Source: an uncultured Actinomycetes bacterium
GTDB taxonomy: Bacteria > Actinomycetota > Actinomycetes > Streptosporangiales > Streptosporangiaceae
Reading direction: 5' to 3'
NCBI GenBank assembly: GCA_963806335.1
Contig: CAWDXO010000009.1
Location: forward strand, 165,269-229,268
Length of the DNA: 64,000 bases
Below are positions 193-34,690 of the stretch, piece after piece (within the stretch, counting starts at the first letter, position 1; each line of letters opens with the position of its first letter). The notes below the pieces were generated by a model. It was not told the DNA's origin. It ran no database searches and worked only from the letters and a program-made list of their open reading frames with translations. The position numbers and the translations under genes are program-made.

Positions 193-909
193 GTGACAAG
201 TCCGGTCGGCGGACCCGGGTCCGGCGAGGCAAAAGACCCGATCGCGGTGTTTCTTCTCGATGATCACGAGGTGGTCCGCCGGGGCGTCCGTGACCTGCTG
301 GAGGCCGAGCCTGATATCCGGGTGATCGGCGAGGCCGGGACCGCGTCCTCAGCGCTGGCCCGGATTCCGGCGCTGCGCCCGGATGTGGCCGTCCTCGACG
401 TGCGGCTGCCGGATGGCGACGGGGTGTCAGTGTGCCGGGAGATCCGCTCGAAGATGCCCGAGGTGGCCTGCCTGATGCTCACCTCGTTCGGCGACGACGA
501 GGCGCTGTTCGACGCGATCATGGCGGGCGCGGCGGGCTACGTGCTGAAGCAGATACGGGGCACCGACCTGGTCGGCGCGGTGCGCACGGTGGCCTCGGGC
601 CAGTCGATGCTCGACCCGCGGGCCGCGAGCCAGCTGATGGCCAGGCTGCGGGATCAGTCCACCAAGCACGATCCGCTGGCCGGCCTGTCCGCGCAGGAAC
701 GCAGGATCCTGGAGCTGATCGGGGAAGGCCTGACCAACCGGCAGATCGGCGAGCGGATGTTCCTGGCCGAGAAGACCGTGAAGAATTACGTCTCGGCGCT
801 GTTCGCCAAGCTGGGCATGGAGCGGCGCACCCAGGCCGCCGCGTACGCGGTTCGCGCCTTCGGCGGCCAGCACGACAGCGAAGAACGATACTCCGAGCAC
901 GGCGACTAG
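193..909 (+). CDS. dosR: NarL/LuxR-family response regulator, DevR/DosR orthologue
   Basis: Receiver domain ([13 protein letters not shown]...[14 protein letters not shown]) plus LuxR HTH ([38 protein letters not shown]), collinear with M. tuberculosis DevR as I recall it. The ORF is open from GTG 115; GTG 193 is preferred because AGGAG lies 5 nt upstream. Confidence 0.9.
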
Positions 910-983: not shown

Positions 984-1445
984 ATGCACACCGACGACGC
1001 CCCGGCCCTAGAGCAGCTGCCTAGGTATGAATCTCTCCGGCTCCTGGCCACCGTGCCCATCGGCCGGGTCATCTTCACCCGGCGGGCGCTGCCAGCGGTG
1101 GAGCTTGTCCATTTCGCCCTCGATAACGGTGACATCATCATCAGGGCCGACCCGGGTGACGCGCTCGCCACCGATATCCGCGACGCCGTCGTCGCTTTCG
1201 AGGCCGATAGCCTCGACGTGGCCCACCGGGCCGGCTGGAGCGTCGCGATCATCGGACGGTCCCGGGTGGTGACCGATCCGGGCGAAATCGACCGGCTGCA
1301 AGAGATAGGCCTGCGCTCCTGGGGCGCCGGGGAGGCGGCACATTTCATCCGTATCTCGCCGGAGCTACTGACCGGGCGGCGGCTTCTCGCTAATGGTCAA
1401 GGGAACGACCGGGAGGACGTGGCGGTGCGGCTCATTTCAGCCTAG
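984..1445 (+). CDS. Pyridoxamine 5'-phosphate oxidase (PPOX)-fold family protein, paralogue 1
   Basis: ATG 984 lies inside the longer track ORF 432..1445. Motifs: LPRYESLRLLATVPIGRVIF, PAVELVHFALDNGDIIIR, GWSVAIIGRSRVV, FIRISPELLTGRRL. It is paralogous to 22337, 49279 and the C-terminal half of 13262. Confidence 0.75.
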   Translation: MHTDDAPALEQLPRYESLRLLATVPIGRVIFTRRALPAVELVHFALDNGDIIIRADPGDALATDIRDAVVAFEADSLDVAHRAGWSVAIIGRSRVVTDPGEIDRLQEIGLRSWGAGEAAHFIRISPELLTGRRLLANGQGNDREDVAVRLISA

Positions 1446-3167
1446 GGGTACCCGCCACTCCAGGGCCGTTCCTGGCGGCGATGCGGCCGGGTCCGCCGGG
1501 CCGAGGCGCAGCTCGCCGCCGAGCTTCTCGGCGCGGCTGGCCATATTGCGCAGCCCGCTGCGTCTGCCCTCGGCCGGGATGCCGCTCCCGTTGTCGGTGA
1601 CCTGGACGGCGAGAATCCGGTCCGGATCCACGTCCACGGACACGTCTACCTGGCTGGCGCCCGAGTGCCTGGCCGCGTTCGACAGCGCCTCACGCAATGC
1701 GGCGAGCACATGCTCGGCTACCTCGGGGCGGACATGGGTGGCGAGGCCGGAGCCCAGTCGCAGCGACGGGGCGAAACCAAGCATCGACGACATCTCCTCC
1801 ACTAGGCCGACAATGTCCCCGCGCAGGTCCGGCGGGCGCACGGCGTCACCACCCTGCAACGCGAAGATGGTGGCGCGGATGTCCTTGATGGTCTCGTCCA
1901 TCGCGTCCACCGCGTTGGTGACGCGGCTCGCCACTTCGGGCCTGGTAATCATCGGCATGGTGCCCTCCAGCGACATGCCGGTAGCGAAAAGCCGCTGGAT
2001 GACCAGGTCATGCAGGTCGCGGGCGATCCGGTCCCTGTCCTCGAACAGCGACAGCCGTTCGGCTTCCGCGTGGGTAGCCGCGAGTTCGAGCGCGACGCCC
2101 GCCTGCGCGGCGAACGACGCCACCACATCGGCCTGGGCCTGGGGGAACGGCGCCGCGCCGTGGCGGCGACCCACGGTGAGCACGCCGCGGACGTTGCCCG
2201 GCACCCCGAGCGGGAACAAGATCGCGGGCCCGATATGGCTCATCACGCCGCGGGCGGCCTGGGAAGCGCGCTCGTCATCAGCGAAATCAGCGGACGTGAT
2301 GGGCTCGCCGCCGGCTAGCACCTGGCCGGACAGCGACTGCCCGGCCGGCAGCACCAGACCTCGGGTGGCGGCGGCGCCGTCACCCTCGGCGTAGGTCATG
2401 GTCAGCCGGCGTCCTTCCTCGTCGGGGAGGGCGAGCACGACAAGGTCGGCTCCGGACAGCTCGAGCGCCCGCCGGGTGATATCGGCCAGGACCTCGCCCG
2501 GCTCGGAGCCTGACAGCAGCCGCGTGGTGACCTCGGCGCTGGCCTGGACCCAGCGTTGCTGGCGGCGGGCGGTGTCATAAAGCCGCGCGTTCTCGATGGC
2601 CACGCCGGCCGCGGCACCCAAGGCGACGAGCACCGCCTCGTCGTCCTCGGTGAACTCGCCGCCGCCGCGCTTGTTGGTCAGGTAGAGGTTGCCGAACACC
2701 TGGTCGCGGAGCCGGATCGGGACACCCAGGAAGCCGTGCATCGGCGGGTGCCCCGCGGGGAAGCCTGACGATTGCCGGTGCGCGGCGATATCGGCCAGCC
2801 GCAGCGGCCCTGGATCATCGATCAGCAGGCCGAGCAGGCCGCGTCCCTCGGGCCAGTGATGGATCTGCCTGATCTCGTCCTCGGTCAGGCCGACCGGGAT
2901 GAACTCGGCCAGCCGCCCGTCGTCACCGATGACGCCGAGCGCGCCGTACGTCGCGTCCACCAGCTTGACCGCGCTCTCGACGATCCGCCTGAGCGTGGAC
3001 TCCAGGTCCAGGCCGGAGCCGATGGCGACGACCGCCTCCAGCAGCCCGCGCATCCGGTCCCTGGTGGCCAGCACCGCCTGCAGCCGCCCCTGCAACTCAG
3101 CGAGCAACTCGTCAAGTTTCAGGTGTGGCAGCAGGAGCTCTGGGCTCTTGGCCGCACTAGGTTCCAA
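1437..3167 (-). CDS. devS: Tandem-GAF sensor histidine kinase, DevS/DosT-like (HisKA_3 + HATPase_c)
   Basis: Two GAF-like regions are followed by the H-box RIARDLHDLVIQRLFATGMSL and an ATPase part (LSNAARHS, DNGSGIP). The N-terminus (LDELLAELQGRL...GLDLESTLRRIV) resembles mycobacterial DevS. Its 3' end overlaps the convergent PPOX gene by 9 nt. Confidence 0.85.
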   Translation of the reverse strand: MEPSAAKSPELLLPHLKLDELLAELQGRLQAVLATRDRMRGLLEAVVAIGSGLDLESTLRRIVESAVKLVDATYGALGVIGDDGRLAEFIPVGLTEDEIRQIHHWPEGRGLLGLLIDDPGPLRLADIAAHRQSSGFPAGHPPMHGFLGVPIRLRDQVFGNLYLTNKRGGGEFTEDDEAVLVALGAAAGVAIENARLYDTARRQQRWVQASAEVTTRLLSGSEPGEVLADITRRALELSGADLVVLALPDEEGRRLTMTYAEGDGAAATRGLVLPAGQSLSGQVLAGGEPITSADFADDERASQAARGVMSHIGPAILFPLGVPGNVRGVLTVGRRHGAAPFPQAQADVVASFAAQAGVALELAATHAEAERLSLFEDRDRIARDLHDLVIQRLFATGMSLEGTMPMITRPEVASRVTNAVDAMDETIKDIRATIFALQGGDAVRPPDLRGDIVGLVEEMSSMLGFAPSLRLGSGLATHVRPEVAEHVLAALREALSNAARHSGASQVDVSVDVDPDRILAVQVTDNGSGIPAEGRRSGLRNMASRAEKLGGELRLGPADPAASPPGTALEWRVPLG

Positions 3168-5870: not shown

Positions 5871-5884
5871 GGGACCTTGGTCCC
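5871..5884. promoter_or_regulatory. DevR/DosR-type operator, GGGACCTTGGTCCC (perfect)
   Basis: Sits in the divergent intergenic region between the permease (-) and a USP (+, start 5999). A weaker copy, GGGACCTTAGGCAC, lies at 5792..5805. Confidence 0.75.
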
Positions 5885-15038: not shown

Positions 15039-15123
15039 GGTGCTTCCTCCTCGTAGATGTTTTCCGTCAACAGCCTGTGCCTGGACCCCGTGGGACGGAT
15101 ACCGCCAATGGGCACACAACGGC

Positions 15124-15137
15124 GGGACCAATGGCCC
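15124..15137. promoter_or_regulatory. DevR/DosR-type operator, GGGACCAATGGCCC (1 mismatch)
   Basis: First of three boxes in the gap / CBS-BON divergent region. Confidence 0.55.
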
Positions 15138-16436: not shown

Positions 16437-17873
16437 TTACCGATGAGTCGACGCTGCCCGTCGTTTGGCCGCTGCTGCCCTTTGGTGGTGCTTGGCGGCC
16501 GTCCGTAGCTCCGACACGCCTTGCTCAATGCCGTGGGCGAGCACGTCGAGGTCGGGGTTGGCCGCGAAGTCGCCGGTGATCCCGAAGGTGACGTTGCCGC
16601 AGTAGCTGAAGATCGAGATCCCGGTGCGCATCGTGGTGGCGATCGGCACGTAGGGGATGATTTCCAGGAGCCGCCGGCCCATCCCGTAGAGCGGCTGGCC
16701 GGGACCGGGCACATTCGTGGTGACGGTGACGATCTCCCGTTGGGGCAGTCCGAACGCCAGCCTGACCCACCAGGACGCGACCGGGTACCAGCTGTAGCGG
16801 CCCAGACTGGTCAGGGCCTCGCCTACTAGCGCTTCCTTGCTTGCCTTCAGGGACCGCAGCTCGGCCTGGACGGCCGCGAGCCGTTCCACCGGGTCGGGGA
16901 TGTGGACGGGGAGATCGGCCAGTACGGCTGAGACCCGGTTGTCGTAGATGTTCTCCTCGCCGGGAGCCCGCAGCGACACCGGGACCAGCGAGCGGACCAT
17001 GTGCGGTTCTGGTTCCTCACCACGGGCGAGCAGGAGCGCCCGGAAGCCACCGCTGATCGCGGCCAAGACGACATCGTTCACGGTGCCGCCAAGCTCCTGC
17101 TTGATCTTCTTCACATCATCTAGCGACGCCCGGGCCCAGGTGTATCGCCGTTGCCTGCCGATCGGCCCGCTCAGCGACGACCCCGTGGTCGGCGACAAAG
17201 CTGGCGTCAGCTTGGCGAAGGCCCGGGCCGCGTCAGCAGCCTGGCGGATGGCACCGCCAGGATCGCCGGCTACCGAGCCGCTCAGCGCGAGGGCTTCACG
17301 GACCGGGAGCACGACGTTGTCCACAGCGGCCTGAGCAGCCAACCCGAGGGAGGACGGCTCCGGGCCCACGAGCCGGTCGTCGACGACGGGCGGCGAAGGT
17401 TCGGGCGAGAAGTCGAAGATCACGCGGTACAGGTCAGTACCGGAAACGCCGTCGACCATGCAGTGGTGCACCTTGGAAATCAGCGCCCAGCGATCCTGGG
17501 CGAGTCCTTCGATGACCCAGTACTCCCACAGCGGGTGATCGCGGTCGAGCCGCTGGGACATCACCCTCGCCATCAGCTCGGCGAGCTGCTGGTCTCCTCC
17601 TGGCGCGGGCAGGGCGGTCCGCCGGACGTGGTAAGCAAGGTCGAAGTGCGGGTCGTCAACCCAGACCGGCGGTCCGAGGCGGAGCGGCACCGTGCGAAGC
17701 TTCTGGCGGTAGCGAGGCACCCGCGGCAAACGCCCGGCCAGGAAAGCCAGAAACTCCTCGTGAGACGGCGGCGGCCCCTCGAACACCGCAATCGACGCGA
17801 TCGCCATCGACGTGTGCAGGTCCTGGTCCTCCGCATCGACGAAAACGGCGTCCAGTGGGCTCAGCTTGTCCAT
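16437..17873 (-). CDS. tgs: Wax ester synthase / diacylglycerol acyltransferase (WS/DGAT), Tgs-like
   Basis: ATG 17873 (MDKLSPLDAVFVDAED). It carries the catalytic HHCMVDGVSG motif (HHxxxDG). The product is 478 aa. Confidence 0.9.
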   Translation of the reverse strand: MDKLSPLDAVFVDAEDQDLHTSMAIASIAVFEGPPPSHEEFLAFLAGRLPRVPRYRQKLRTVPLRLGPPVWVDDPHFDLAYHVRRTALPAPGGDQQLAELMARVMSQRLDRDHPLWEYWVIEGLAQDRWALISKVHHCMVDGVSGTDLYRVIFDFSPEPSPPVVDDRLVGPEPSSLGLAAQAAVDNVVLPVREALALSGSVAGDPGGAIRQAADAARAFAKLTPALSPTTGSSLSGPIGRQRRYTWARASLDDVKKIKQELGGTVNDVVLAAISGGFRALLLARGEEPEPHMVRSLVPVSLRAPGEENIYDNRVSAVLADLPVHIPDPVERLAAVQAELRSLKASKEALVGEALTSLGRYSWYPVASWWVRLAFGLPQREIVTVTTNVPGPGQPLYGMGRRLLEIIPYVPIATTMRTGISIFSYCGNVTFGITGDFAANPDLDVLAHGIEQGVSELRTAAKHHQRAAAAKRRAASTHR

Positions 17874-18003
17874 GACGTCCCCTTCCAAGTTGCGTCCACC
17901 CCGCCGCCCGGAACGCTGCCAGGCAAACGACGAATACCCTGCTCCACTTTTGGATCGTAGGTCGCGCGGCTCTGGCTGGCCCCGGCCAATCGTCCTGCAT
18001 GCT

Positions 18004-18017
18004 GGGACTTTCGGCCC
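18004..18017. promoter_or_regulatory. DevR/DosR-type operator, GGGACTTTCGGCCC (1 mismatch)
   Basis: Sits in the divergent tgs / fadD intergenic region. Confidence 0.55.
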
Positions 18018-18033
18018 TGAGCACCGGCTCCTC

Positions 18034-18047
18034 GGGCTGAAGGTCCC
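18034..18047. promoter_or_regulatory. Candidate DevR/DosR-type operator, GGGCTGAAGGTCCC (2 mismatches)
   Basis: Second box in the tgs / fadD intergenic region, 30 bp from the first. Confidence 0.4.
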
Positions 18048-18141
18048 GCCAGGCCGGGCAGAACGCCCGTAGCGGCCGCCGCTCGGCACCGCACACGCTA
18101 AGTAGCGGACCACTAGCTCAGTATCGTGAAGGGACGGGGTC

Positions 18142-19716
18142 ATGAGCTTCAACCTTGCTGTCATTCTCAGCGAAACCGCGCATTCATCGCCAGACAAGCC
18201 CGTGGCCGTGTTCACCGGGGGCCAGCTGACGTACCGGGAACTTGACATGGCCTCGGACCGGCTGGCAGCTTCCCTGGCGGCGGCCGGGATTAAGCCCGGT
18301 GACCCGGTGGCACTGCAGCTGCCCAACATCCCCCAGTTTCTGATCTGCTACTTCGGGATCCTCAAGGCGGGCGGCATCGTCGTGCCGCTCAACGTCATGC
18401 TCAAGGCGCCCGAGGTGGCATTCCATCTAGGCGATAGCGGGGCCCGCGTCCTGATCACCTGGGAAGGGATCCTGGCCGAGGCCGTCAAGGGAGCCGAAGC
18501 CGCCGGGCTCGAGGAAATCTATGCCGTCGGCCACGGCGATGACTCCGGAGGTGCCGTCCCGTTCGAGCGGCTGCTGGCCGTCGAGGTGGCGCACTTCGAG
18601 ATGGCCATGCGGCAGCCCATGGACACCGCTGTCATCGTCTATACCTCGGGCACGACGGGTCGGCCCAAGGGCGCCGAGCTCACGCACCTGCAGCTGTACA
18701 TGAACGCCGACATCCCCGGCCGCCTGTTCGAGGTCCAGCCCGACGACATCGTGATCACCGTGCTGCCGCTGTTCCATGTCTTCGGCCTATCCAGCATCCT
18801 GGACATCTGCGTGCGGTTCGGCTGCACCATGTCGCTGATCCCGCGGTTCACCCCCGCCGCGGTGCTGACCGCGATCCAGCGCGACCGGGCCACCATCTTC
18901 GAGGGCGTGCCCACCATGTTCGCCGACCTGCTTTCCTGCCCGGACATAGACCGCTACGACCTGTCCTCGCTGCGGATCGCCATCTCCGGCGGGGCGTCCA
19001 TCCCCGCGCCGGTCCTGGACGCGTTCGAGGACCGCTTCGGGCTGATCATCCTGGAGGGCTACGGGCTGACCGAAACCGCGTCGACGGTGACCTTCAACCT
19101 CAGCGAGCACGAGCGCCGCGCCTACAGCGTCGGCAAGCCCATCTGGGGCACCCAGACGCAGGTCTGGGACAACCAGGGCCGGCCACTGCCGCCCGGCCCG
19201 GAGCACGTCGGCGAGGTCGTCACCCGCGGCCTGCACGTGATGAAGGGCTACCTGCACAACCCCCAGGCCACCGCCGCCACCTTCACCGGCGACTGGCTGC
19301 GTACCGGGGACCTGGGCTACTTCGACCGGGACGGGTTCTTGTTCATCGTCAGCCGCGAGAAGGAACTCATCATCCGGGGCGGCTACAACGTCTACCCCAG
19401 CGAGATCGAGAACGTGCTGCACGCCCACCCGGCGGTCGCCGAGGCCGCGGTGGTCGGTATTCCCGACGGGCGGCTCGGCGAAGAGGTCATGGCGGTCATC
19501 GTCCCGCGGCAGGCGGCGACCGTGCTGGAAGCCGACTTGTTCTCCTACTGCGGGGAGCGGCTGGCTGCCTACAAATGCCCGCGGATTTTCGAGTTCCGCT
19601 CGGAGCTGCCCAAGAACTCGCTCGGCAAGATCCTCAAGGACGAACTGGTCCGGCTCCGGGTGCCCCGGATCCGGGTCCAAAGTCCGGGACCTTTGGCATC
19701 GGATGAAGTGAGCTAA
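18142..19716 (+). CDS. fadD: Long-chain fatty-acid--CoA ligase (AMP-binding family)
   Basis: Motifs: YTSGTTGRPKGA, GYGLTE, TGDLG, and the C-terminal KNSLGKILK. Confidence 0.9.
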   Translation: MSFNLAVILSETAHSSPDKPVAVFTGGQLTYRELDMASDRLAASLAAAGIKPGDPVALQLPNIPQFLICYFGILKAGGIVVPLNVMLKAPEVAFHLGDSGARVLITWEGILAEAVKGAEAAGLEEIYAVGHGDDSGGAVPFERLLAVEVAHFEMAMRQPMDTAVIVYTSGTTGRPKGAELTHLQLYMNADIPGRLFEVQPDDIVITVLPLFHVFGLSSILDICVRFGCTMSLIPRFTPAAVLTAIQRDRATIFEGVPTMFADLLSCPDIDRYDLSSLRIAISGGASIPAPVLDAFEDRFGLIILEGYGLTETASTVTFNLSEHERRAYSVGKPIWGTQTQVWDNQGRPLPPGPEHVGEVVTRGLHVMKGYLHNPQATAATFTGDWLRTGDLGYFDRDGFLFIVSREKELIIRGGYNVYPSEIENVLHAHPAVAEAAVVGIPDGRLGEEVMAVIVPRQAATVLEADLFSYCGERLAAYKCPRIFEFRSELPKNSLGKILKDELVRLRVPRIRVQSPGPLASDEVS

Positions 19717-23166: not shown

Positions 23167-24309
23167 ATGGTGAACTGGTGGGAGAACCACCGGAATACGG
23201 CGGCGGCTGTGCCTGACGATATCTACCCGGTGCGGTGGACGGGCCAGCAGGCCGTGGTGGCCTTCCCTGAAGAAGTTGACGTATCTAATGCCGGGCAGAT
23301 CCGCGAGGAGTTGCTTTCCGTCATCAACCGCGGCGCGGCCGTCCTGATCGCTGACATGACCGATACGGTCTCCTGTGATCATGCGGGCGTGGATGCCATC
23401 GGGCGCGTCTACCAGCGGGCCCTGGTCAGCGGGACGGAACTGCGACTGGTGGTCGGCAGCGAGATCGTGCGGCGCGTGCTCGCCATGAGCGGCGTCGACC
23501 GGGTGGTGTCCATATACCCCTTCGTAGCCGCCTCCCTGGCCGCGAAGAAAACAGACACCGGGCCGCTGCTCACGCTGGCCGAACCCGGCGGAGGCCAGAG
23601 CCGGCCCGATGCGGATGTCGGCGTCGAGGTCGCGCTGCTGGATTGCGACGGCGTGATCGTGTGGGTAAACGAGGCCTGGCAGGTCTTCGCGCTGGCCAAC
23701 GACGGCGACCTCTCCCGCGCAGGCACCGGCGTGTCGTACCTGGATGTCTGTGATACCGCGGGCGACGACCCGACCACCGGTGAGGTCGCCGCCGCTATCC
23801 GCAGCGCGCTGACGGGAGATATGCCTGCTCCCATCACCATCGAAGTGCCCTGTCACAGCCCGAGCACGGAGCGCTGGTTCGACATGCTGATTGCCGCGCG
23901 GCGCGGCGACAACGGAAGGCCGCTGGGAGCGACGGTCACATTGTCGCTGGCCAGGTCGGAGGATCGGGCCACGCCGATCAGGCCCGAGCGCAGCGGGGTG
24001 GCCGGGACGGCACGAGCGGGCACAGGCGGCCACGTTCTACCTGGTCACGGCCGACCGGCCCCCGCGGACCTCGCTGACTTCGCTCGTGCGGCCGCGCAGC
24101 AGGCGCGCCGTCGCCAGGAACTGCTCGAACGGATCACCAACAGCCTGTACCAGGTCGGGCTCACCTTGCAGGACGCCGACGAGTCTCCCGAGGCAGCGCA
24201 GGAAGCCATAACCGGAGCCCTTCAGGGCTTGGATACCACGATCCGCGAGATCCGCGACGCCGCGTTCACGGACTCGATCAGGTCGTTCCCGCCGCCAGAG
24301 CCCACCTAG
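23167..24309 (+). CDS. STAS - PAS - coiled-coil (degenerate HisKA_3-like) signalling protein
   Basis: STAS part: VVAFPEEVDVSNAGQIREEL...DHAGVDAIGRVY...EIVRRVLAMSGVD. PAS-like part: LLDCDGVIVWVNEAWQVFA...ERWFDMLIAA. C-terminal helices: ERITNSLYQVGLTLQ...LDTTIREIRDAAF. There is no ATPase domain. Confidence 0.65.
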   Translation: MVNWWENHRNTAAAVPDDIYPVRWTGQQAVVAFPEEVDVSNAGQIREELLSVINRGAAVLIADMTDTVSCDHAGVDAIGRVYQRALVSGTELRLVVGSEIVRRVLAMSGVDRVVSIYPFVAASLAAKKTDTGPLLTLAEPGGGQSRPDADVGVEVALLDCDGVIVWVNEAWQVFALANDGDLSRAGTGVSYLDVCDTAGDDPTTGEVAAAIRSALTGDMPAPITIEVPCHSPSTERWFDMLIAARRGDNGRPLGATVTLSLARSEDRATPIRPERSGVAGTARAGTGGHVLPGHGRPAPADLADFARAAAQQARRRQELLERITNSLYQVGLTLQDADESPEAAQEAITGALQGLDTTIREIRDAAFTDSIRSFPPPEPT

Positions 24310-24333
24310 CTTGCATCCCCCACGCCTGGTATC

Positions 24334-24361
24334 GGGACTTTGGCCTCGGGACTTTGGTCCC
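24334..24361. promoter_or_regulatory. Two abutting DevR/DosR-type operators, GGGACTTTGGCCTC + GGGACTTTGGTCCC (second is perfect)
   Basis: A direct 14-bp duplication about 110 nt upstream of the cytochrome b start. Confidence 0.7.
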
Positions 24362-24472
24362 GAGGCCTGGTGACCCTTAGCACTTCAGGCCAGGCCGCGG
24401 CGATTCCATGATGGGGCGATCAGCTAAGTAGCCGGGCGGATAAGTCCGCCCGGCAAGACCCCGGAGGTCCCG

Positions 24473-26329
24473 TTGACACTCCTTGACGCGGCGGGAAACG
24501 CTCCCGTGGCCATCGACCTGAACCATCCAGGCACCTACCTGAACTGGAACATCTTCACGATTTCAGTGGCCAACCTTGTCCTCATTGCGGTCATGGTGGT
24601 CATCTTCGGTGCGGCACTGCTGCTGCCGTTCCCCAGAGCGCACCGCGGCGAAACGGGGGAGGTGACCGAGCCTGAAAATGCCACCGTGGCTCCTGATATC
24701 GGCACCGTCCCCGGTGATGAGCGGATGTGGACGGCGCGGGTGCGCCGCCGCGCGCTGACCTCGCTGCCGCCGAACAAACTGCTGCCTGATCGCCAGCCCG
24801 CCTACGTCGCCTCCTGGGTATACGTGTTCGGCGTGGCCTCGCTGGCCGCGCTCGGCGTGGTGATCGTGAGCGGCTTCGCCATCGCCCTCGGCGGCCCCGA
24901 CTGGTGGCATTACAACCCCGTGGGGCACTTCTTCAACAGCCTGCACCTGTGGAGCGTCGAGCTGTTCATGGCCTTTCTGGTTATCCACCTGTGGGGCAAG
25001 TTCTGGATGGCCGCCTGGCGCGGCCGCCGCGCCATGACCTGGATCACCGGCGTCGTCGCCTTCGTCGCCGCCGTGGTCGAGTGCTTCACCGGGTACCTGT
25101 CCCAGCAGAACTTCGACTCCCAGTGGATCGCCACCAACGGCAAGGATGCGTTCAACGCGGTCGGGGTCGGGGCGTTCTTCAACCTGATGAACTTCGGCCA
25201 GATGCTGATGTGGCACATCGTGCTCCTGCCGATCATCCTGATCGCGATCATCGGCGCGCACGTGCTGCTGGTCCGTGTCCGCGGCGTCAGCCACCCGCTG
25301 CCGGTCGCCAGGCCCCGCGGCCTGGCCGCCCGGCGCGCGGCCGCCAAAGCCGACCGGGCGGCGTGGCGCGGGCCGACCAAGCGCTACGACATCCTGAAGG
25401 AAGGCACCATCGCGACCGTCGTGGTCCTGGTCCTGACCATCGGCCTGTCCGCCCTGCTGTCCTCCCCTAACGTGCCGCCGGTCACGGTCCGCAGCTGGGT
25501 CCAGGTCGCCCCCGCCGACTTCCTGGCCACCGCCGCCAGCGAGCTGAACGGCACCAGCCTGACCGCGAGTTACGGCCCGCCGTACAACACCAACGGAACC
25601 CCGCAAAGCGAATGGTTCGCGCCGGCGGACATCGCCGGCGTGCGGCAGCCGATCGACCCGGCACGGACCTTCGTGCTCGAACCGCTGGCCCAGTCGGCTC
25701 CCACCGACCCGGCGCTGGCCGCCGCGCTGGCCGCTTACAACGCAGCGTCTCCCAAGCAGCAGAACACCTGGGCAACCAACTACGGGAACGCGCTCGCCAA
25801 GGTCAAGTTCGTGAACGGGACCCCGGTGGTACCCGCAGGCAACTACGGGCCCGTCCCCGCCATGCTGGCCACCGAGCTGACCCTGGCCCGCAGCGGCGCG
25901 GTCGACGCCGCCCTGAGTGGCGCCCAGCCGTTCTACGGCACCGACTTCACCAAGCCGCTGCTGTTCCTCGAGGACGGCGCTTACTACGCCAACCAGGCGA
26001 CCGCCGAGCACCTCACCGGAGACCAGTGGGGCGTGATGAACGAGACGGGCAGTTACCCGGGCCAGCCCTGGCTGTGGCTGTACCAGATGTGGTACCACGT
26101 CCCCGGATGGCGTAACTCCGCCAACATCGACCTGATCGCCATCTACATGACCGGCGTGGCCACCCTGCTGCTGCTGGCCATCCCGTTCATCCCCGGCCTG
26201 CGCGACATCCCCCGGTGGATACCCGTGCACCGGCTGATCTGGCGGAACTGGAACCAGAGCGAGCATCCCTCCGGGCCCATCGGCCAGACCGAATCCGGCC
26301 CCAAGCCGGAGCCCGCCGGACAGAAATGA
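24473..26329 (+). CDS. Dihaem cytochrome b (b6/QcrB N-terminal type) with a large extracytoplasmic domain and extra C-terminal TM helix
   Basis: TTG start after GGAGG. Helix B (HLWSVELFMAFLVIH) has 13 residues between the His ligands. Helix D (HIVLLPIILIAIIGAH) has 14 between them. The stretch WRGRRAMTWITGVVAFVAAVVECFTGY resembles QcrB. The stop overlaps the hydrogenase large-subunit ATG. Confidence 0.75.
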   Translation: MTLLDAAGNAPVAIDLNHPGTYLNWNIFTISVANLVLIAVMVVIFGAALLLPFPRAHRGETGEVTEPENATVAPDIGTVPGDERMWTARVRRRALTSLPPNKLLPDRQPAYVASWVYVFGVASLAALGVVIVSGFAIALGGPDWWHYNPVGHFFNSLHLWSVELFMAFLVIHLWGKFWMAAWRGRRAMTWITGVVAFVAAVVECFTGYLSQQNFDSQWIATNGKDAFNAVGVGAFFNLMNFGQMLMWHIVLLPIILIAIIGAHVLLVRVRGVSHPLPVARPRGLAARRAAAKADRAAWRGPTKRYDILKEGTIATVVVLVLTIGLSALLSSPNVPPVTVRSWVQVAPADFLATAASELNGTSLTASYGPPYNTNGTPQSEWFAPADIAGVRQPIDPARTFVLEPLAQSAPTDPALAAALAAYNAASPKQQNTWATNYGNALAKVKFVNGTPVVPAGNYGPVPAMLATELTLARSGAVDAALSGAQPFYGTDFTKPLLFLEDGAYYANQATAEHLTGDQWGVMNETGSYPGQPWLWLYQMWYHVPGWRNSANIDLIAIYMTGVATLLLLAIPFIPGLRDIPRWIPVHRLIWRNWNQSEHPSGPIGQTESGPKPEPAGQK

Positions 26330-27654
26330 CGCATAAGAACGACCGCGTGCTCGCGGTCACCGAGCTGGCCCGGGTGGAAGGCGAAGGCGCCATGTACATC
26401 CGGGCCAGCGGAGGGCAAGTGGAGGAGGCGCGGCTCAACATCTACGAGCCGCCCCGCTTCTTCGAGGCGTTCCTGCGGGGCCGCGGCTACACCGAGCCGC
26501 CGGACATCACCGCCCGGGTCTGCGGCATCTGCCCGGTCGCCTATCAGATGAGCTCGTGCATGGCGATCGAGGACGCCTGCGGCGTCACCGTCGACGGGCC
26601 GATCGCCGACCTGCGCAGGCTGCTGTACTGCGGGGAGTGGATCGAGAGTCATGCGCTGCATATCTACCTGCTGCACGCGCCCGACTTCCTCGGCTTCGGG
26701 AGCGGGATCGAGATGGCGGTGGCGCGGCGGGACATCGTGGAGCGCGGCCTGGCGCTGAAGAAGGCGGGCAACGCGATCATGGAGGTGGTAGGCGGCCGGG
26801 CCATCCACCCGGTCAACGTGCGCGTCGGCGGCTTCTACCGGGTGCCCACCCGGGCCGAACTCGGCACGCTCGCCGACCAGCTGCGGCGAGCGCTCGACGG
26901 CGCGCTCGACACGGTGCGCTGGGTGGCCGGATTCGATTTCCCTGATCACGCCAGCCAGCAGGACCTGCTCGCCATGTCCCGCCCGGGTACCTACCCGATC
27001 GAGCGGGGGAACCTGGTGACGCGCTCGGGTCTGGCGTTCACCGCGGCCCAGTTCGACGAGCACGTGGTCGAGGAACAGGTACCGTACTCCACCGCGCTGC
27101 ACGCTCACCTGGCCGGCGGAGGCACGTACCTCACCGGCCCGCTGGCCCGCTACTCGCTGAACTCGCGCTGGCTGTCACCGCTGGCGCGGGAGGCAGCACA
27201 CGCGGCCGGGCTCGGCCCGGCCTGCGACAACCCGTTCCGCAGCATCATCGTGCGCGCGGTGGAGGTGGTCTACGCGATCGAGGAGGCGCTGCGCCTCATC
27301 ACCGCCTACGAGCCGCCCGGCCTCCCGGCCGTGGCGGTGCGCCCCCGTGCTGGTGTCGGATACGGGGTAACCGAGGCGCCCAGGGGCATCTTGTACAACC
27401 GGTATGAAATCAGCGCGGACGGCCTGGTGACCAGCGCCCGCATCGTGCCCCCGACCTCCCAGAGCCTGGCGGCCATGGAGGCTGACCTGCGCGACTTCGT
27501 GCAGCTGCGGATCGACCTCGACGACGCCGAGCTCACCCGCCAGTGCGAGCGGGCGATCCGCAACTACGACCCGTGTATCTCCTGCTCGGCCCACTTTCTC
27601 GACCTCACCGTCGAAAGGTCGTTATGGCCAGGACCGACGGACCGGTCGTGGTGA
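26326..27654 (+). CDS. hyhL: [NiFe]-hydrogenase large subunit, group 3b (sulfhydrogenase alpha / HyhL type)
   Basis: ATG 26326 forms an ATGA overlap with the upstream stop. The N-terminal Ni-binding motif is RVCGICP and the C-terminal motif is DPCISCSAH. At about 442 aa it is collinear with Pyrococcus sulfhydrogenase alpha as I recall it. Confidence 0.85.
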   Translation: MTHKNDRVLAVTELARVEGEGAMYIRASGGQVEEARLNIYEPPRFFEAFLRGRGYTEPPDITARVCGICPVAYQMSSCMAIEDACGVTVDGPIADLRRLLYCGEWIESHALHIYLLHAPDFLGFGSGIEMAVARRDIVERGLALKKAGNAIMEVVGGRAIHPVNVRVGGFYRVPTRAELGTLADQLRRALDGALDTVRWVAGFDFPDHASQQDLLAMSRPGTYPIERGNLVTRSGLAFTAAQFDEHVVEEQVPYSTALHAHLAGGGTYLTGPLARYSLNSRWLSPLAREAAHAAGLGPACDNPFRSIIVRAVEVVYAIEEALRLITAYEPPGLPAVAVRPRAGVGYGVTEAPRGILYNRYEISADGLVTSARIVPPTSQSLAAMEADLRDFVQLRIDLDDAELTRQCERAIRNYDPCISCSAHFLDLTVERSLWPGPTDRSW

Positions 27655-28088
27655 TCGGCGTGGGTAACGAGTTCCGCCGCGACGACGGGGCCGGGCCCGT
27701 GGTGGTCAGCAAGCTGCGCGACGTCGTGCCGCCGGACGTGCGGCTGGTGGTCACCGACGGCGAGCCGGTGCGGCTGATGGAGGCCTGGACCGGAGCGGCG
27801 CTCGCCGTCGTCGTCGACGCGGTCCGCGCTGATCCGCCGCGGCCGGGCCAGACGTACCGTTTCCTGGTCGACCGGCCGCAGACCGGGCCGCGACGGCCCG
27901 CGAGTTCGCACGGCCTCGGCCTTGATGACGCGATCAGCCTGGCACTCGCATTGGACCGCATGCCCGGCCAGCTGATCGTGCACGCGATCGAGGCGGCCGA
28001 CCTGACCCAGGGCCCCGGCCTGTCGCCATCGGTCGCGGCGGCCGTCGACACCGTGGTGAGCGCCGTCATCGCCGACGTTTGCGCATAG
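27624..28088 (+). CDS. Hydrogenase maturation endopeptidase (HycI/HoxW family)
   Basis: Motifs: VVVIGVGNEFRRDDGAGP...SSHGLGL. It overlaps the hyhL 3' end by 31 nt. Confidence 0.8.
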   Translation: MARTDGPVVVIGVGNEFRRDDGAGPVVVSKLRDVVPPDVRLVVTDGEPVRLMEAWTGAALAVVVDAVRADPPRPGQTYRFLVDRPQTGPRRPASSHGLGLDDAISLALALDRMPGQLIVHAIEAADLTQGPGLSPSVAAAVDTVVSAVIADVCA

Positions 28089-28097
28089 CGCAGCCGT

Positions 28098-28886
28098 TCA
28101 CTCCGCCGGTGACGGGCCGGCCGTCCTGGCCGCGGCGAAGGCGGGAGCGGCGGCGTTGAAGGTGGCGAAAATTCGCCGCACTTCTGCCTCGGTCAGCCCG
28201 AGGCGCCGGAGCTGGGGGGTGAGGGCGGCGAGGTTCGGCGTGTCCACCGGGCCGAAACAGCCGTAGCAGCCCCGGCCGAAGGCGGGGCAGATCGCCCCGC
28301 AGCCGGCCTGGGTCACCGGCCCGAGGCAGGGCGTACCGTGCGCCACCATCACGCACGACGTGCCCCGCAGCTTGCAGTCATGACAGACGCTGTGCTTAGG
28401 CAGGCGGGGCTCCCGGCCCGCCAGCAGAGCGGTCAGCAGCTCGAGCAGCTGCCGGGAATCGATCGGGCAGCCGCGCAACTCGAAATCGACCGCAACATGA
28501 TCGGATACCGGCGTCGAGGTCGCCAGGGTCGAGATGTACTCGGGTCGCGCGTACACCACCGAGGTGAACTCCCTGACGTCGGCGAAGTTGCGCAGGGCCT
28601 GGATACCGCCCGAGGTAGCGCAGGCCCCGATGGTGACTAGTACCCGGGAGGCCGAGCGGATATCGGCGAGACGGCGGACGTCCCGCTCGGTGGTAACCGA
28701 GCCCTCCACCAGGGAAACGTCGTAGGGCCCGGCCACCTCGGTGCTTGACGCCTCGGTGAAGTGCGCGATCTCGACGGCGCCCGCGATCGCGAGCAGCTCG
28801 TCCTCGCAGTCGAGCAGGGTGAGCTGGCAGCCGTCGCAGGAAGCTAGCTTCCACACGGCCAGCTTGGGCTTATTAACGCCGGTCAT
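28098..28886 (-). CDS. hyhS: [NiFe]-hydrogenase small subunit, group 3b (delta / HyhS type)
   Basis: ATG 28886. Motifs: [14 protein letters not shown]...GACATSGGI...GCP, plus distal Cys clusters. Its start overlaps the hyhG stop by 1 nt. Confidence 0.85.
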
Positions 28887-29743
28887 CACAGCTCCTTCAG
28901 CGTCACAAGGGGAGCGGCCCCGGCGTAGCTGACCACCGGGCCGTCTCGGCAGAGCAGGAGCGGGCCCAGCTGGCAGTGGCCGCAGAGCGCGGTACCGCAC
29001 CGCATGTTCCGCTCCAGGGAGACCTGGATGTCCGCGGCCGCGACCCCGCAGTTCACCAGCGCTTCGGCGGACCGCCGCATCATGATCTCCGGCCCGCAGA
29101 TGAATGCCGCTGTCCACGCGGGATCAACGACCGCGTCCTCGATGAGCCCGGTGATCAAGCCGACCCGACCGTCCCAGTCGGGGGTGCCGCGGTCCACCGT
29201 GACCCGCACGTCGGCGCCGCGCTGGCGCCAGGTCCTGAGCTCGCGGGTGAAGATCAGGTCGTCCGGTGACCGCGCGCCGACCAGCAGGACCACCCGGTCG
29301 TACCTGGCCCGCGCGGCGAGGGCCGCCAGCACCACCGGACGCAGCGGGGCGAGCCCGATACCACCCGCCACGATCAGCGCGTCCCGGCCGTCGGCGCGGC
29401 GCAGCCGCCAGTCGGTGCCGAACGGCCCGCGCACCCCGATCATGTCGCCGGGCGCCGCGGCGCACAGGGCGCGGGTCGTCGCCCCGACCGCCCGGATCGT
29501 ATGAACGAGCGGGCCCGCGCCGCCATGGAAGCCGCTGACCGAGACCGGGACCTCGCCCACGCCGAAGGTATACAGCATGGTGAACTGGCCCGGACGCGGC
29601 GGCGGGATCGCGTCGTCCACCGGTCGCAGCATCAGCGTCACCGTGTCGTGGGTCTCGGCGCGCCGCGCCGCCACGACGTAGCGCGCGGGCCGCATCGGCG
29701 CTCCCGGGACCGGGGGGACGGAACGCTCCCACACCATCGTCAT
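28886..29743 (-). CDS. hyhG: Hydrogenase gamma subunit, FNR-like FAD/NAD(P)-binding with C-terminal 2Fe-2S (HyhG type)
   Basis: ATG 29743 forms an ATGA overlap with the hyhB stop. Motifs: [31 protein letters not shown]. Confidence 0.8.
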
Positions 29744-30897
29744 GACCCCTCCCCCGCTGGCCGATCGCGCTCCGCGCGCAGGGCCCGGGTTTCCTCGGTG
29801 AGATCGATGCCCGCCGGGCACCACACGATGCACCGTCCGCAGCCCACGCAGCCGGACGAGCCGAACTGGTCGTGCCAGGTGCCGAGCTTGTGGGTAAGCC
29901 ACTGCCGATACCGGCTCGCTCCCGACACCCGCACGCTGCCGCCATGCAGGTAGGAAAAGTCCAGGTCGAAACAGGAATCCCAGCGCTGCCAGCGCTCGGC
30001 GTGCCCGCCGGTCAGGTCGGTGGTGTCCTCGACCGTGGTGCAGAAACACGTCGGGCAAGCCAGGGTGCAATTGCCGCAGGTCAGACAGCGCGCGGCGACG
30101 TCATCCCAGCGGGCGGCCTGGTGGCTGTCCGTCATCAGGTCCCGCAGGTCGCAGGTGTCCAGCTGGCGGCCCATCCGGTCCACCGCGGCGTCCACCGCCG
30201 ACCGTGCCCGCCGGATGGTGGCGTCGTCCGCCCGCTCGTTCGGCACCTGCGTCAGGACGTCCGCGCCGTCGGCCGAGCCGATGTTGACGAGGAACCGGTG
30301 CCCGTGGTCGTCGAGCAGTTCGGTGAGCGCCAGGTCGAAGACTTCCCCGGCGCTGCCCGGACCGGTGCCCATTGAGGCGCAGAAGCAGGTCTCCCCCGGC
30401 TCGGTGCAGTTCACCGCGATGATGAACACGCCGGAGCGGCGGGCCGCGTACCCTGAGCCTGCCCGGCCGAGGACCTGATCCTGGATCGCGATCGCCCGCA
30501 GGTCACACGGGCGGACACCGAGGAACGCGTACCGCGGGGGTTCGTCCTGGCCGGGATCGTCGGACACCTCGAATCCATTGCCGGTACGCGTCGCCGACCA
30601 GAGCCGCTCCCGCGGCGGGTGCAGGAACCGCTTCCAGCTTTGCGGTCCCGCCACGTGACCGAAGGCGGCCGTATCATCGCGGCGGCGCAGCCGGTATCCG
30701 CCCGGCTCGAGCCGGACTCCCCAGCCGAAGGGCAGTTCCCCGGCCGACGACAGCTCGGCGAGCACGATGGCACCGTCCCGGACCGTCGGCCCGACGACGC
30801 GGTAACCCTGAGCGACCAGTGCCCGATACAGATCACCGAGACCCTCGACATCGATAAGCCGGGGGACGTCAATCGCAAGTCCGGTAGCCATTACCAC
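29740..30897 (-). CDS. hyhB: Hydrogenase beta subunit, 4Fe-4S dicluster protein (HyhB / AsrA-like)
   Basis: Motifs: CLTCGNCTLACPTCFC and CVGCGRCIVWCPAGID. It is the first gene of the hyhBGS unit. Confidence 0.8.
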   Translation of the reverse strand: MVMATGLAIDVPRLIDVEGLGDLYRALVAQGYRVVGPTVRDGAIVLAELSSAGELPFGWGVRLEPGGYRLRRRDDTAAFGHVAGPQSWKRFLHPPRERLWSATRTGNGFEVSDDPGQDEPPRYAFLGVRPCDLRAIAIQDQVLGRAGSGYAARRSGVFIIAVNCTEPGETCFCASMGTGPGSAGEVFDLALTELLDDHGHRFLVNIGSADGADVLTQVPNERADDATIRRARSAVDAAVDRMGRQLDTCDLRDLMTDSHQAARWDDVAARCLTCGNCTLACPTCFCTTVEDTTDLTGGHAERWQRWDSCFDLDFSYLHGGSVRVSGASRYRQWLTHKLGTWHDQFGSSGCVGCGRCIVWCPAGIDLTEETRALRAERDRPAGEGS

Positions 30898-30989
30898 TGT
30901 CCGTTCGGCCGATAAGGGATTTTGATCTTTCTTCCCTCACCGTCCCGCCGCGGGCCGCCGACGGTCATGGGCGTTGGTTCGTAGTACGC

Positions 30990-31003
30990 GGGTCCTTAGT
31001 CCT
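30990..31003. promoter_or_regulatory. Candidate DevR/DosR-type operator, GGGTCCTTAGTCCT (2 mismatches)
   Basis: About 95 nt upstream of the hyhB start. An AT-rich stretch lies at 30915..30935. Confidence 0.35.
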
Positions 31004-31030
31004 GCGATCGGCCGCGCGCAGGAGCGCGGA

Positions 31031-31981
31031 TCAGGACCCGGCGGCCGCCTGGGCCAGCTCGAGCAAGTTGTGCAGGTCACGTGACGCTTCCAGGGCGGAA
31101 ACCCCGGAGACCGCGACGAGCAGGACGGCGGCGGCGAGCAACACCAGCTGGGGCCGCGGCGCCGGGCGGAGCAGGGCCGCGACACGGTGCGGAACGGGCC
31201 CGGGGCCGCGCCTGAGCTGCGGCAGCGCGACCGCACCGAGCGCCACCGCCGGACCGGGACGGCGGTGCGGGTCCGCTGAGGCCGCGATGGCGGCCTGGGC
31301 GACGGCGCGGGCCGCGAGGGGCCGGTCCCCGGTGACCGCGGCGGCATGCTCATCGGCCCATCGTTCTACCGTGTAGCCGACGGCGGCGGCGACCGGGCGG
31401 AGCAGCGGGTTGGCGGCGGCGGCCAGCCGGGCCGCGCTGGTGAACAGGTAGTGGAACCACACGGCGTGGGCCCGTTCGTGGGCCAGCAGGACCTTCTGCT
31501 CGGACGAGCTGAGCGCGCGCATCATGCCGGCGGTAACCACGATCCGGCACGGCCAGCCGGGCAGGGTGTACGCGTCGGCGGTCTCCTCCTCGGTGACCAC
31601 GACCTGACCGGACCCGGGCAGTCGGCGGGCCTGCCCGAACGCGGCGGCCAGGGCGCTGCCGCGGTGCCACAGCGCCCGCCCGGCCGCGGTAGCGGAGATG
31701 GCCAGCAGCGCCCCCGCGGCCACGGCGACCGGCAGCGAGGCGGGGTCACCATGGCTGAACACCGGCGCGGACATGCCGCCAACCTGGTCGACCAGGGGAA
31801 TCCGGAACAGCGCGGTCAGTGCGAGCAGCCCCAGCACGGCGCTGCTGGCCGCGGCCAGCACTAGCGCGCTGCCGGCCAGCAGCCAGGTGGCGGCGGCCGG
31901 CGGCAGCCGCCGGGACAGCGGCCTCGCCGCCAGGGCCGCCAGCAGCGGCACCACGAGCGGGAAGTAAATCACCATGTCCAT
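31031..31981 (-). CDS. M56/M48-type membrane metalloprotease, BlaR1-like signal transducer without a penicillin-binding sensor domain
   Basis: Several TM helices and the HExxH motif in LLAHERAHAVWFH. It lies immediately downstream of the BlaI-family gene. Confidence 0.7.
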   Translation of the reverse strand: MDMVIYFPLVVPLLAALAARPLSRRLPPAAATWLLAGSALVLAAASSAVLGLLALTALFRIPLVDQVGGMSAPVFSHGDPASLPVAVAAGALLAISATAAGRALWHRGSALAAAFGQARRLPGSGQVVVTEEETADAYTLPGWPCRIVVTAGMMRALSSSEQKVLLAHERAHAVWFHYLFTSAARLAAAANPLLRPVAAAVGYTVERWADEHAAAVTGDRPLAARAVAQAAIAASADPHRRPGPAVALGAVALPQLRRGPGPVPHRVAALLRPAPRPQLVLLAAAVLLVAVSGVSALEASRDLHNLLELAQAAAGS

Positions 31982-33628: not shown

Positions 33629-34690
33629 TCAGGGCCGCAGCCGCGCGCTGGGCGGCTGGACAGGCGCGGGGAAGGCCAGGACGGCGACGAAGTCCCTGGT
33701 CCAGCCCACGAGGTACTGGTCGGCCGGACGGTACTGACCGGGCACCGCCGTCCGGAGCGAACCGCCCGGCCGCCCGGCCACATCCAGCTGGACCCACTCG
33801 GGGTTGATATCAAGCTCCATCGCGATCCTGGCGCCGTCGTAGGCCAGCACAGCCGCCAGGTCGGCGGGCGTCGTGGACATACTCGCGGCGTAGAGGAGGT
33901 CGCCGGCGGCGTTCTGGCCGAGCGCGCTGCGGGCGACGTACTCCCCGCCGATCGTCGCGCCCCACTGGCTCCAGTCGGCCGCGGCCGGCGCGGGCTGGCC
34001 GTTCAGGACCAGCGACGGCAGATTCTGCCGGACGCTGTACACCGCCTCGCCCGGTGCGGGCACGCCGCGGCCCCAGATCCCGATCGTGGCCTGGCCCGCG
34101 CTGTCGATGACCAGGCTAGCCAGGCCACGGCGGAGCGGGCTGATCACGTCGCCCTCCTGCTCGTACCCGCCCACACCCGCGGAGAGCTTGAACCCGCCGT
34201 TGAACGCGGCCAGCAGTTGCCCACGCTCGGCACCGGTCACGACCGGGCCGGCCCGGACCCGCCCCGCCGCGGCCGCCCCTGGATCAAGGCTGCCGTTGTG
34301 CAGGACATACCGCACCGGACCCCGGATGGTCGCGACGGTCACTACGGAGCCGTCCGGGGTCCGGCTCCGGGTTAGCGTGATGCGCGGCATGGGCGCCGCC
34401 GGCAGCGCGACCGGGCCCGCGCCGGCCGCCTGGGCTGGGTCCGGGCGGGCTGGGGTATCTGGTCCGGCCGGGGTATCTGGTCCGGCCGGGGTATCTGGTC
34501 CGGCCGGGGTATCTGGTCCGGCCGGGGTATCTGGTCCGGCCGGGGTAGGCGAGGCAGGGCGCGCGCTGGCGCGGCCGGAGGTACTGGCGCGGCTGGAGGG
34601 CTCGCCTGGGTGGGTCACGGCGGGCGGAGCGCTGCACGCCGCGAGCGCGCACAGCCCGGCCAGCGCGCCCGCCGTCCAGAACCTGCGCAT
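33629..34690 (-). CDS. Lipoprotein, probable phosphodiester-glycosidase (DUF2233-like) family, with a (PDTPAG)5 linker
   Basis: Signal peptide with lipobox (LCALAAC). Motifs: FNGGFKL and AMELDINPEWV. Confidence 0.55.
   Translation of the reverse strand: MRRFWTAGALAGLCALAACSAPPAVTHPGEPSSRASTSGRASARPASPTPAGPDTPAGPDTPAGPDTPAGPDTPAGPDTPARPDPAQAAGAGPVALPAAPMPRITLTRSRTPDGSVVTVATIRGPVRYVLHNGSLDPGAAAAGRVRAGPVVTGAERGQLLAAFNGGFKLSAGVGGYEQEGDVISPLRRGLASLVIDSAGQATIGIWGRGVPAPGEAVYSVRQNLPSLVLNGQPAPAAADWSQWGATIGGEYVARSALGQNAAGDLLYAASMSTTPADLAAVLAYDGARIAMELDINPEWVQLDVAGRPGGSLRTAVPGQYRPADQYLVGWTRDFVAVLAFPAPVQPPSARLRP
34452..34541. repeat. Perfect tandem repeat, 18 bp x 5, in frame inside the lipoprotein gene
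   Basis: Five copies of GGGGTATCTGGTCCGGCC encode PAGPDT repeats on the minus strand. Confidence 0.95.

Follow-up and report, generated by a model that had tools for sequence, protein, structure and literature searches.

A group 3b [NiFe]-hydrogenase in two convergent gene units beside a putative DosR-type regulon cytochrome b in an uncultured actinobacterium

We describe here a [NiFe]-hydrogenase locus in a 64,000-nucleotide stretch of DNA from an uncultured soil actinobacterium of the family Streptosporangiaceae (contig CAWDXO010000009.1, positions 165,269 to 229,268; hereafter the window), in which the large-subunit gene of a group 3b enzyme, hyhL, directly follows and overlaps a gene for a membrane cytochrome b. 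The window has a GC content of about 69%, and the closest homologues of its genes are in Streptosporangiaceae, Trebonia-like, and other actinobacterial metagenome-assembled genomes (MAGs). In its gene order and regulation the locus is a new form of a known kind of hydrogenase, situated beside an uncharacterised cytochrome b of a DosR-type regulon. A first-pass annotation, made from the sequence, had taken the overlap to suggest that the cytochrome b tethers the hydrogenase to the membrane or provides it with a quinone branch. We consider it likely instead that an independent cytochrome b and an ordinary Hyh enzyme share one hypoxia island, and that hyhL and the adjoining maturation protease gene use the cytochrome b promoter. 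If so, the stop/start overlap reflects promoter sharing within a shuffled stress island and not a protein complex, and it serves as a caution.

The cytochrome b and its junction with hyhL

The cytochrome b gene (24473..26329, plus strand) encodes a seven-helix membrane protein of 618 residues and has, as first annotated, a TTG start 5 nt after a GGAGG, to which the N-termini of its homologues align. Its TGA stop overlaps the ATG of hyhL (26326..27654, plus strand, 442 residues) in an ATGA at 26326..26329, and we take this ATG to be the conserved hyhL start because all 80 metagenome relatives align from residue 1. The gene for a hydrogenase maturation endopeptidase (27624..28088, plus strand; TIGR00072 at 102 bits with a cutoff of 47, and PF01750) begins at the ATG at 27624 and overlaps hyhL by 31 nt in another frame. 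The remaining subunits are encoded on the minus strand by hyhB (beta, 29740..30897), hyhG (gamma, 28886..29743), and hyhS (delta, 28098..28886), with a 4-nt ATGA overlap of hyhB and hyhG (29740-29743), a 1-nt overlap of hyhG and hyhS at 28886, and 9 nt between the protease stop at 28086-28088 and the hyhS stop at 28098. The overlaps, and the arrangement of hyhL-protease and hyhB-hyhG-hyhS as two convergent operons, had all been described in the first pass and are present as described. There is an alternative hyhB start, the ATG at 30891, and the relative L084 calls a HyhB of 383 residues. The layout of the window is common to five further loci (L082-L086), and because the same junctions recur there it is not an assembly artefact; an assembly chimera is ruled out.

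The cytochrome b family is largely independent of hydrogenases. Related stretches are found in species-representative genomes at least 563 times, and we surveyed the 80 best species-level loci, with 64-86% identity to the window protein and up to 10 kb fetched on each side. No hydrogenase gene lies within 10 kb in 78 of these, and hyhL directly follows the cytochrome b gene in none of the 80. Only two carry hyh genes nearby, L002 with a canonical hyh operon divergent from the cytochrome b gene, and L020 with hyhBGS 3.5 kb downstream. No fixed partner emerged, the recurrent neighbours being genes for DevS-like kinases (17 loci), zinc alcohol dehydrogenases (17), PNPOx-like proteins (16), and DevR-like regulators (15), together with a 211-residue membrane protein encoded immediately upstream in 10 loci, and CBS/BON, universal stress protein (USP), Rv1733c-like, nitroreductase-like, and STAS-PAS genes. 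The C-terminal half of the protein has 967 representative homologues of its own, many of them stand-alone proteins of 320-335 residues from Chloroflexota and Bacteroidota MAGs. In two Chloroflexota-type contigs, L172 (5390-6999) and L173, a stand-alone C-terminal gene overlaps a gene for a 204-residue cytochrome b, and no hydrogenase was found within 6 kb of this two-gene module in either contig.

The junction itself is unstable among close relatives. The cytochrome b and hyhL genes overlap by 4 nt in the window and in L083-86, and are separated by a 4-nt gap in L082. In L081 the cytochrome b is 95% identical to that of the window and the whole hydrogenase cassette is missing; after the cytochrome b stop only the first ~85 nt of hyhL remain (L081:9854-9940), followed by an M48 peptidase gene, which constitutes a deletion scar. 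The flanks are the same as in the window, with STAS/PAS genes upstream and M48 peptidase, BlaI-like, and BacA genes downstream. The cytochrome b of L081 remains under purifying selection, the ratio of nonsynonymous to synonymous substitution rates (dN/dS) being 0.205 between the window and L081, without the hydrogenase, and 0.164 between the window and L084, with it. Between hyhB and the M48 gene of L082 (L082:14560-14720) the cytochrome b 3' / hyhL 5' junction occurs a second time in degenerate form, so that the cassette is flanked by a direct repeat that could mediate such a deletion. The possibility that the hyhL 5' sequence is a mobile repeat is ruled out by its single occurrence in the window. 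We also note that L083, with a HyhL 96% identical to that of the window, retains hyhL, the protease gene, and hyhG while hyhS and hyhB are absent (L083:9763-10837), which points either to partial decay of the cassette or to a fault in the assembly.

One clade further out (L092-95, HyhL 85% identical), the cytochrome b and hyhL genes are on the same strand and 138 nt apart, with no DosR box in the spacer. The spacer (L093:6863-7000, and likewise in L092, L094, and L095) contains a perfect 19-bp hairpin, GCTGGCCCGGGTGGAAGGC-AAA-GCCTTCCACCCGGGCCAGC, whose left arm is identical to hyhL 5' coding sequence, and the whole spacer has a minimum free energy of -76 kcal/mol (z -5.8). The hairpin may be a rearrangement remnant, or a terminator or processing site.

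The N-terminal part of the protein resembles cytochrome b6 and QcrB. PF13631 covers residues 164-276 (48.6 bits, cutoff 27), and in profile comparison with the PDB only residues 114-278 match, to cytochrome b/b6. The b6-type histidine spacing noted in the first pass is confirmed, with H158/H172 and H248/H263 having 13 and 14 residues between them and aligning with the four b6 haem ligands. The protein shares with the bc1/b6f complexes this N-terminal four-helix dihaem domain, including all four haem-ligand histidines and the b6-type spacing, but it is without the cytochrome b C-terminal domain or subunit IV-type part, and no PEWY motif was found in it. It adds instead an N-terminal helix and, after the dihaem domain, a helix, an outward domain of about 220 residues, and a final helix; moreover, neither Rieske nor cytochrome c genes are among the recurrent neighbours of window-type cytochrome b genes. 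By these sequence comparisons it is not a full member of the bc1/b6f family.

There are seven hydrophobic segments in all, including the extra N-terminal and C-terminal helices. The extra C-terminal helix had been noted previously and stands, whereas the accompanying non-membrane domain is not about 270 residues long but about 223 (residues 330-552). This stretch sits between the last two helices and is predicted from hydropathy and the positive-inside rule to be outside the cell, and the predicted cytoplasmic parts are the loops at residues 53-111 and 269-305 and the tail at 576-618. The whole protein contains one cysteine. No Pfam match was found in the C-terminal half, but an AlphaFold2 model of it (gene part 25370-26326, residues 300-618) has a mean predicted local distance difference test score (pLDDT) of 83.6 and an all-alpha domain of ~220 residues, for which a fold search against the PDB returned no relative (best E 3.7, template-modelling score ≤0.14). 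The full-length AlphaFold2 model, built with 11 close homologues, reached a pLDDT of 42.

The precedent for quinone coupling is provided by HyaC/HupC (PF01292), the dihaem membrane anchor of group 1 [NiFe]-hydrogenases, which serves periplasm-facing enzymes by way of a C-terminal helix of the small subunit. The window protein is similar in being a dihaem membrane cytochrome b encoded beside hydrogenase structural genes. However, PF01292 has no match in it at E ≤ 0.01, the window HyhS has nothing like the group 1 small-subunit helix, and there is no consistent co-occurrence with hydrogenase, hyh genes lying within 10 kb at two of the 80 cytochrome b loci. The cytochrome b does not appear from its sequence to belong to the HyaC/HupC family of hydrogenase anchors.

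The hydrogenase and its divided gene order

The assignment of the enzyme to group 3b is supported by its best PDB and NCBIfam matches, which are sulfhydrogenase alpha subunits, and by the presence of four subunit types. HyhL, over residues 9-425, scores 222 bits with the group 3b profiles 5yxy_A and 9nez_D, compared with 161 for Mvh (3c), 151 for Hox (3d), and 128 for Frh (3a), and its NCBIfam scores are 268 for ShyA and 248 for HydA versus 130 for VhuA and 127 for FrhA. The text of the HydDB paper gives no defining motifs for group 3b. The 442-residue protein carries both of the motifs attributed to it previously, RVCGICP and DPCISCSAH, and the second of these is followed by a 19-residue tail, consistent with a cleavable C-terminal extension, with the protease gene adjoining. 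HyhB contains a Fer4_22 4Fe-4S dicluster domain (PF17179, 109 bits; best matches ShyB, HydB, and AsrA), HyhG has FAD/NAD(P)-binding and 2Fe-2S domains (PF00175, PF10418, and PRK08345), and HyhS is an Oxidored_q6 protein (PF01058; best NCBIfam matches ShyD/HydD). With the HyhB and HyhG domains intact, the normal NAD(P)-linked electron path is therefore predicted to be intact also. All six open reading frames of the locus are intact and keep their metal-binding motifs, and hyhL has a dN/dS of 0.14-0.23 in comparisons with its relatives. Its sequence thus identifies the enzyme as an ordinary group 3b hydrogenase with a complete subunit set, and by analogy with the Hyh of Mycobacterium smegmatis its activity would be soluble and NAD(P)-coupled.

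The best full-length HyhL matches, at ~220 bits, are the sulfhydrogenases of Pyrococcus furiosus and Thermococcus kodakarensis (5yxy, 9nez, and 9e15), and all four window subunits have their best NCBIfam matches in the corresponding Shy/Hyd A, B, G, and D families, although the window scores fall far under the archaeal equivalog cutoffs. The archaeal subunits are encoded in a single operon, whereas the window enzyme is bacterial, high-GC, and, judging by its boxes, hypoxia-regulated. M. smegmatis has the gene order hyhBGSL. Its Hyh (Hyd3) and the window enzyme have the same four subunit types and a protease, and both are actinobacterial and lie in a DosR-type hypoxia island with Hsp20, USP, and Tgs-like genes. 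They differ in that hyhL and the protease gene of the window are inverted relative to hyhBGS to give convergent units, in that hyhL follows the cytochrome b gene and not hyhS, and in that no hyp genes adjoin. The claim that the window contains no hyp genes was checked at the level of motifs and agrees with the absence of HypC and HypD signature motifs from all six frames. M. smegmatis Hyh is DosR-activated and fermentative (bioRxiv 10.1101/2023.09.11.557286), and the expected role of the window enzyme is similarly NAD(P)H-driven H2 evolution in hypoxia.

The convergent split is a clade-wide layout and the commonest among hyhL relatives. Eighty metagenome loci with HyhL 68-85% identical to that of the window were surveyed, and in the 48 with a readable layout there are 33 convergent arrangements, eight with hyhL and no hyhS nearby, and seven canonical hyhBGSL operons. 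An example of the last type is Actinoplanes lobatus (72% identity), with a single operon hyhB-(cNMP-binding)-hyhG-hyhS-hyhL-protease, in which the end of hyhS, as called, and the start of hyhL have 4 nt in common. The element that precedes hyhL varies between hyhS, a CBS-domain gene (lying 5-17 nt before it in L087-89 and L091), a lone DosR-type box, and the cytochrome b gene, either with the 138-nt spacer or divergently oriented; in the convergent layout it is usually a DosR-type box belonging to hyhL itself or a CBS-domain gene. A single inversion of hyhL and the protease gene within a canonical operon fits the geometry, and inverted hyhL 5' fragments exist in L092-95, but the breakpoints are not reconstructable and this is an idea only. 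A large soil and peat actinobacterial group 3b clade is organised not as one operon but as two convergent units, each with its own DosR-type box.

Three further variations among the relatives concern the cassette itself. In 17 of the 120 top clusters HyhL is fused in frame to the maturation protease, giving proteins of ~598-601 residues with PF00374 and PF01750 (for example L087:8001-9806, P0167, and P0184), and the C-terminal extension leads without a break into the protease domain (...DPCISCATHFLDLTIERSL...VVVIGVGNEFRRDDGAG). The window counterpart, at 26326-28088, is the 31-nt overlap in different frames. Such fusions may process themselves, and that many hyhL relatives join the large subunit in frame with its own maturation protease is, like the two-unit layout, useful for hydrogenase biology. 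A gene for a protein with a cyclic-nucleotide (cNMP)-binding domain lies between hyhB and hyhG in canonical relatives (L090:5811-6314, L002:6428-6928, and L020:16417-17016), and a flavodoxin gene is found after hyhS in the convergent loci L087-89 and L101 and after the protease gene in L091. The window contains neither.

DosR-type boxes and readings of the junction

DosR-type boxes were defined as the palindrome GGGAC-N4-GTCCC. The window contains 23 with at most one mismatch where 7.9 are expected, a number reached in none of 100 shuffles. As noted in the first pass, a doubled box precedes the cytochrome b gene and a weaker one precedes hyhB. The doubled box (24334..24361, plus strand) consists of GGGACTTTGGCCTC at 24334, with two mismatches, and directly after it the perfect GGGACTTTGGTCCC at 24348, ~112 nt before the cytochrome b start, and the weaker box, GGGTCCTTAGTCCT (30990..31003), has two mismatches and is 93 nt upstream of hyhB, with the near-identical GGGTCCTAAGTCCT kept at the same place in L082. 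A candidate regulator of the island is encoded at 223..861 (plus strand) by a DevR/DosR-like response regulator gene, with 85% tblastn identity to the Response_reg+GerE-type regulator of related loci (Pfam context from the syntenic L082), and a DevS/DosS-like GAF-GAF-HisKA_3 sensor kinase gene lies at 1443..3167 (minus strand; 85% over 577 residues to the L082 kinase, which has GAF, HisKA_3, and HATPase_c domains). With the enrichment of boxes and this putative regulatory pair, the DosR-type setting proposed previously is well founded, and by its sequence features the locus is part of a large DosR/DevR-type hypoxia island.

The boxes are not peculiar to the window. With at most one mismatch allowed, 48 of 77 species loci have a box ahead of the cytochrome b gene, perfect in 28 and clustered 100-127 nt before the start, compared with a background rate of 0.064 per 370 nt, and on this evidence the family appears to be a conserved part of a DosR-type regulon across the Actinomycetota. 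The hyhL gene has a box of its own within 400 nt upstream in 20 of 67 loci (background 0.1 per 400 nt), perfect and at about -105 in seven of them, and a box with at most one mismatch precedes hyhB in nine of 20 relatives. These separate hyhL and hyhB boxes indicate that the usual arrangement is of two separately DosR-boxed half-operons.

The reading that we favour, of an independent cytochrome b and an ordinary Hyh, suggests the following scheme. In the window lineage hyhL and the protease gene would have lost their own promoter region, and from their place immediately after the cytochrome b gene they probably share its transcript. A DevR-like regulator would bind the box at 24348 under hypoxia and drive a single cytochrome b-hyhL-protease transcript, from which hyhL could be translated by termination-reinitiation at the ATGA, and hyhB-hyhG-hyhS would be transcribed from the second, weaker box at 30990. 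The two transcripts would run towards each other, with their stop codons 9 nt apart and no terminator recognisable. HyhL would be processed, with Hyp maturation proteins presumably encoded elsewhere, and would join HyhS, HyhG, and HyhB in the cytoplasm, where electrons from NAD(P)H would be disposed of as H2. The cytochrome b would have a membrane role of its own, probably the quinol-linked transfer of electrons across the membrane. The gene identities and layouts, the distribution of the two gene sets, the boxes, and the scar are direct observations, and we infer the co-transcription, the identity of the regulator, and both enzymatic roles from them.

Several observations weigh against this reading. 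The cytochrome b gene is near hyhL in seven of the 47 loci that were informative for proximity (four adjacent on the same strand, one at 3.5 kb, and two divergent), which is above what a single accident would give, and the cytochrome b survey adds the linkages in L002 and L020. In the two divergent loci, L146 and L165, hyhL and the cytochrome b gene diverge from a common intergenic region that holds a DosR-type box. A neighbour-joining tree of 92 cytochrome b sequences places most of the hydrogenase-linked members in one subclade, alongside the unlinked L001, L004, and L067, but the linked L146, L165, and L020 are elsewhere, so that linkage is found in several parts of the tree. The apparent shrinkage of the spacer from 138 nt to +4 and then to -4 could reflect selection for joint expression. 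Finally, scans of positions 24200-31100 for sigma-70 promoters and intrinsic terminators gave no promoters and one terminator-like site, not above shuffles, with tools poorly suited to a high-GC actinobacterium. Nonetheless, if both genes simply belong to a hypoxia island whose contents are shuffled, linkage that recurs but stays loose is to be expected.

The best-surviving alternative is that the two systems are complementary but physically separate hypoxic sinks, one for the quinol pool and one for NAD(P)H, whose linkage is kept by selection for co-inheritance and co-regulation. It fits the DosR-type boxes found on both in many species, the occurrence of both in islands with USP, Hsp20, Tgs-like, PNPOx-like, and CBS/BON genes, and a proximity that is recurrent though loose. 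We nevertheless think it unlikely, as it adds to the favoured reading only a selection for linkage, and the linkage of only two of 80 cytochrome b loci suggests that such selection is weak.

It is somewhat harder to sustain the proposal of the first-pass annotation, that the cytochrome b genuinely works with the hydrogenase in this lineage, either anchoring it to the membrane or serving as its quinone/quinol-coupling subunit. In its favour are the ATGA coupling in the window and L083-86 and a proximity that is seen repeatedly, in three configurations and over cytochrome b identities of 63-95%, and both genes are under DosR-type boxes, with the box shared in L146 and L165; the modelled topology, moreover, offers positively charged cytoplasmic loops and a conserved cytoplasmic tail that could be docking surfaces. 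However, the tail is equally conserved in unlinked homologues such as L001 and L004, and the sole large domain is predicted to face outward, away from a cytoplasmic enzyme whose usual NAD(P) route through HyhB and HyhG is intact. The cytochrome b is not of the PF01292 type of the group 1 anchors, it is absent from 40 of the 47 informative hyhL loci, hyh genes are not nearby in 78 of its own 80 loci, and a module without hydrogenase is present in other phyla. In L081, where the cassette has been deleted, the cytochrome b is kept under purifying selection. Tethering and a quinone branch are thus not borne out, although some homologues of the cytochrome b do neighbour hydrogenases, so that the idea of a membrane link is weakened rather than overturned. 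A partnership of this kind would mean that group 3b enzymes are no longer purely cytosolic and have gained a respiratory branch, and we are doubtful in equal degree that a recruited cytochrome b connects the evolution or uptake of H2 in hypoxia with the menaquinone pool or with an acceptor outside the cell.

That the cassette is a decaying remnant without present function, and its place behind the cytochrome b gene meaningless, is the least credible reading and a very improbable one, for although L081 has lost the cassette and retains a scar, L083 is without hyhS and hyhB, the L002 hyhL looks disrupted, and Frankia group 3b clusters, which are also without hyp genes, are often lost or pseudogenised (PMC11879354), the six window reading frames and their metal-binding motifs are intact, the hyhL dN/dS is low at 0.14-0.23, and the same intact cassette is found in L082 and L084-86.

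What holds most promise is the cytochrome b itself, which appears to be conserved within a DosR-type regulon, has a predicted outward domain with no fold relative in the PDB, and is a candidate for a new component of hypoxic electron disposal in obligate aerobes. In the literature that we searched we found no description of a link between group 3b enzymes and a cytochrome b (judged by titles and abstracts), of the convergent split, or of this cytochrome b family, and narrower searches, on Hyd3 in connection with group 3b and DosR and on hydrogenase in Trebonia, came back empty.

The surrounding island

The boxes of the window crowd into its first 25 kb, with perfect examples at 5871, 12469, 15155, 15221, 21564, and 24348. 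Besides the DevR/DevS-like pair, the genes of this region include those for glyceraldehyde-3-phosphate dehydrogenase (14037-15131), two CBS-BON proteins, a Tgs-like wax ester synthase/diacylglycerol acyltransferase (WS/DGAT; 16437-18329), an acyl-CoA ligase-like protein, a protein that is Rv1733c-like by synteny, Hsp20, and a PNPOx-like protein. Beyond the hydrogenase genes, a predicted secreted protein is encoded at 33629-34690 on the minus strand, with a tandem PAGPDT peptide repeat (PAGPDTPAGPDTPAGPDT...) near its N-terminus, and its syntenic counterparts have a weak NAGPA-domain match.

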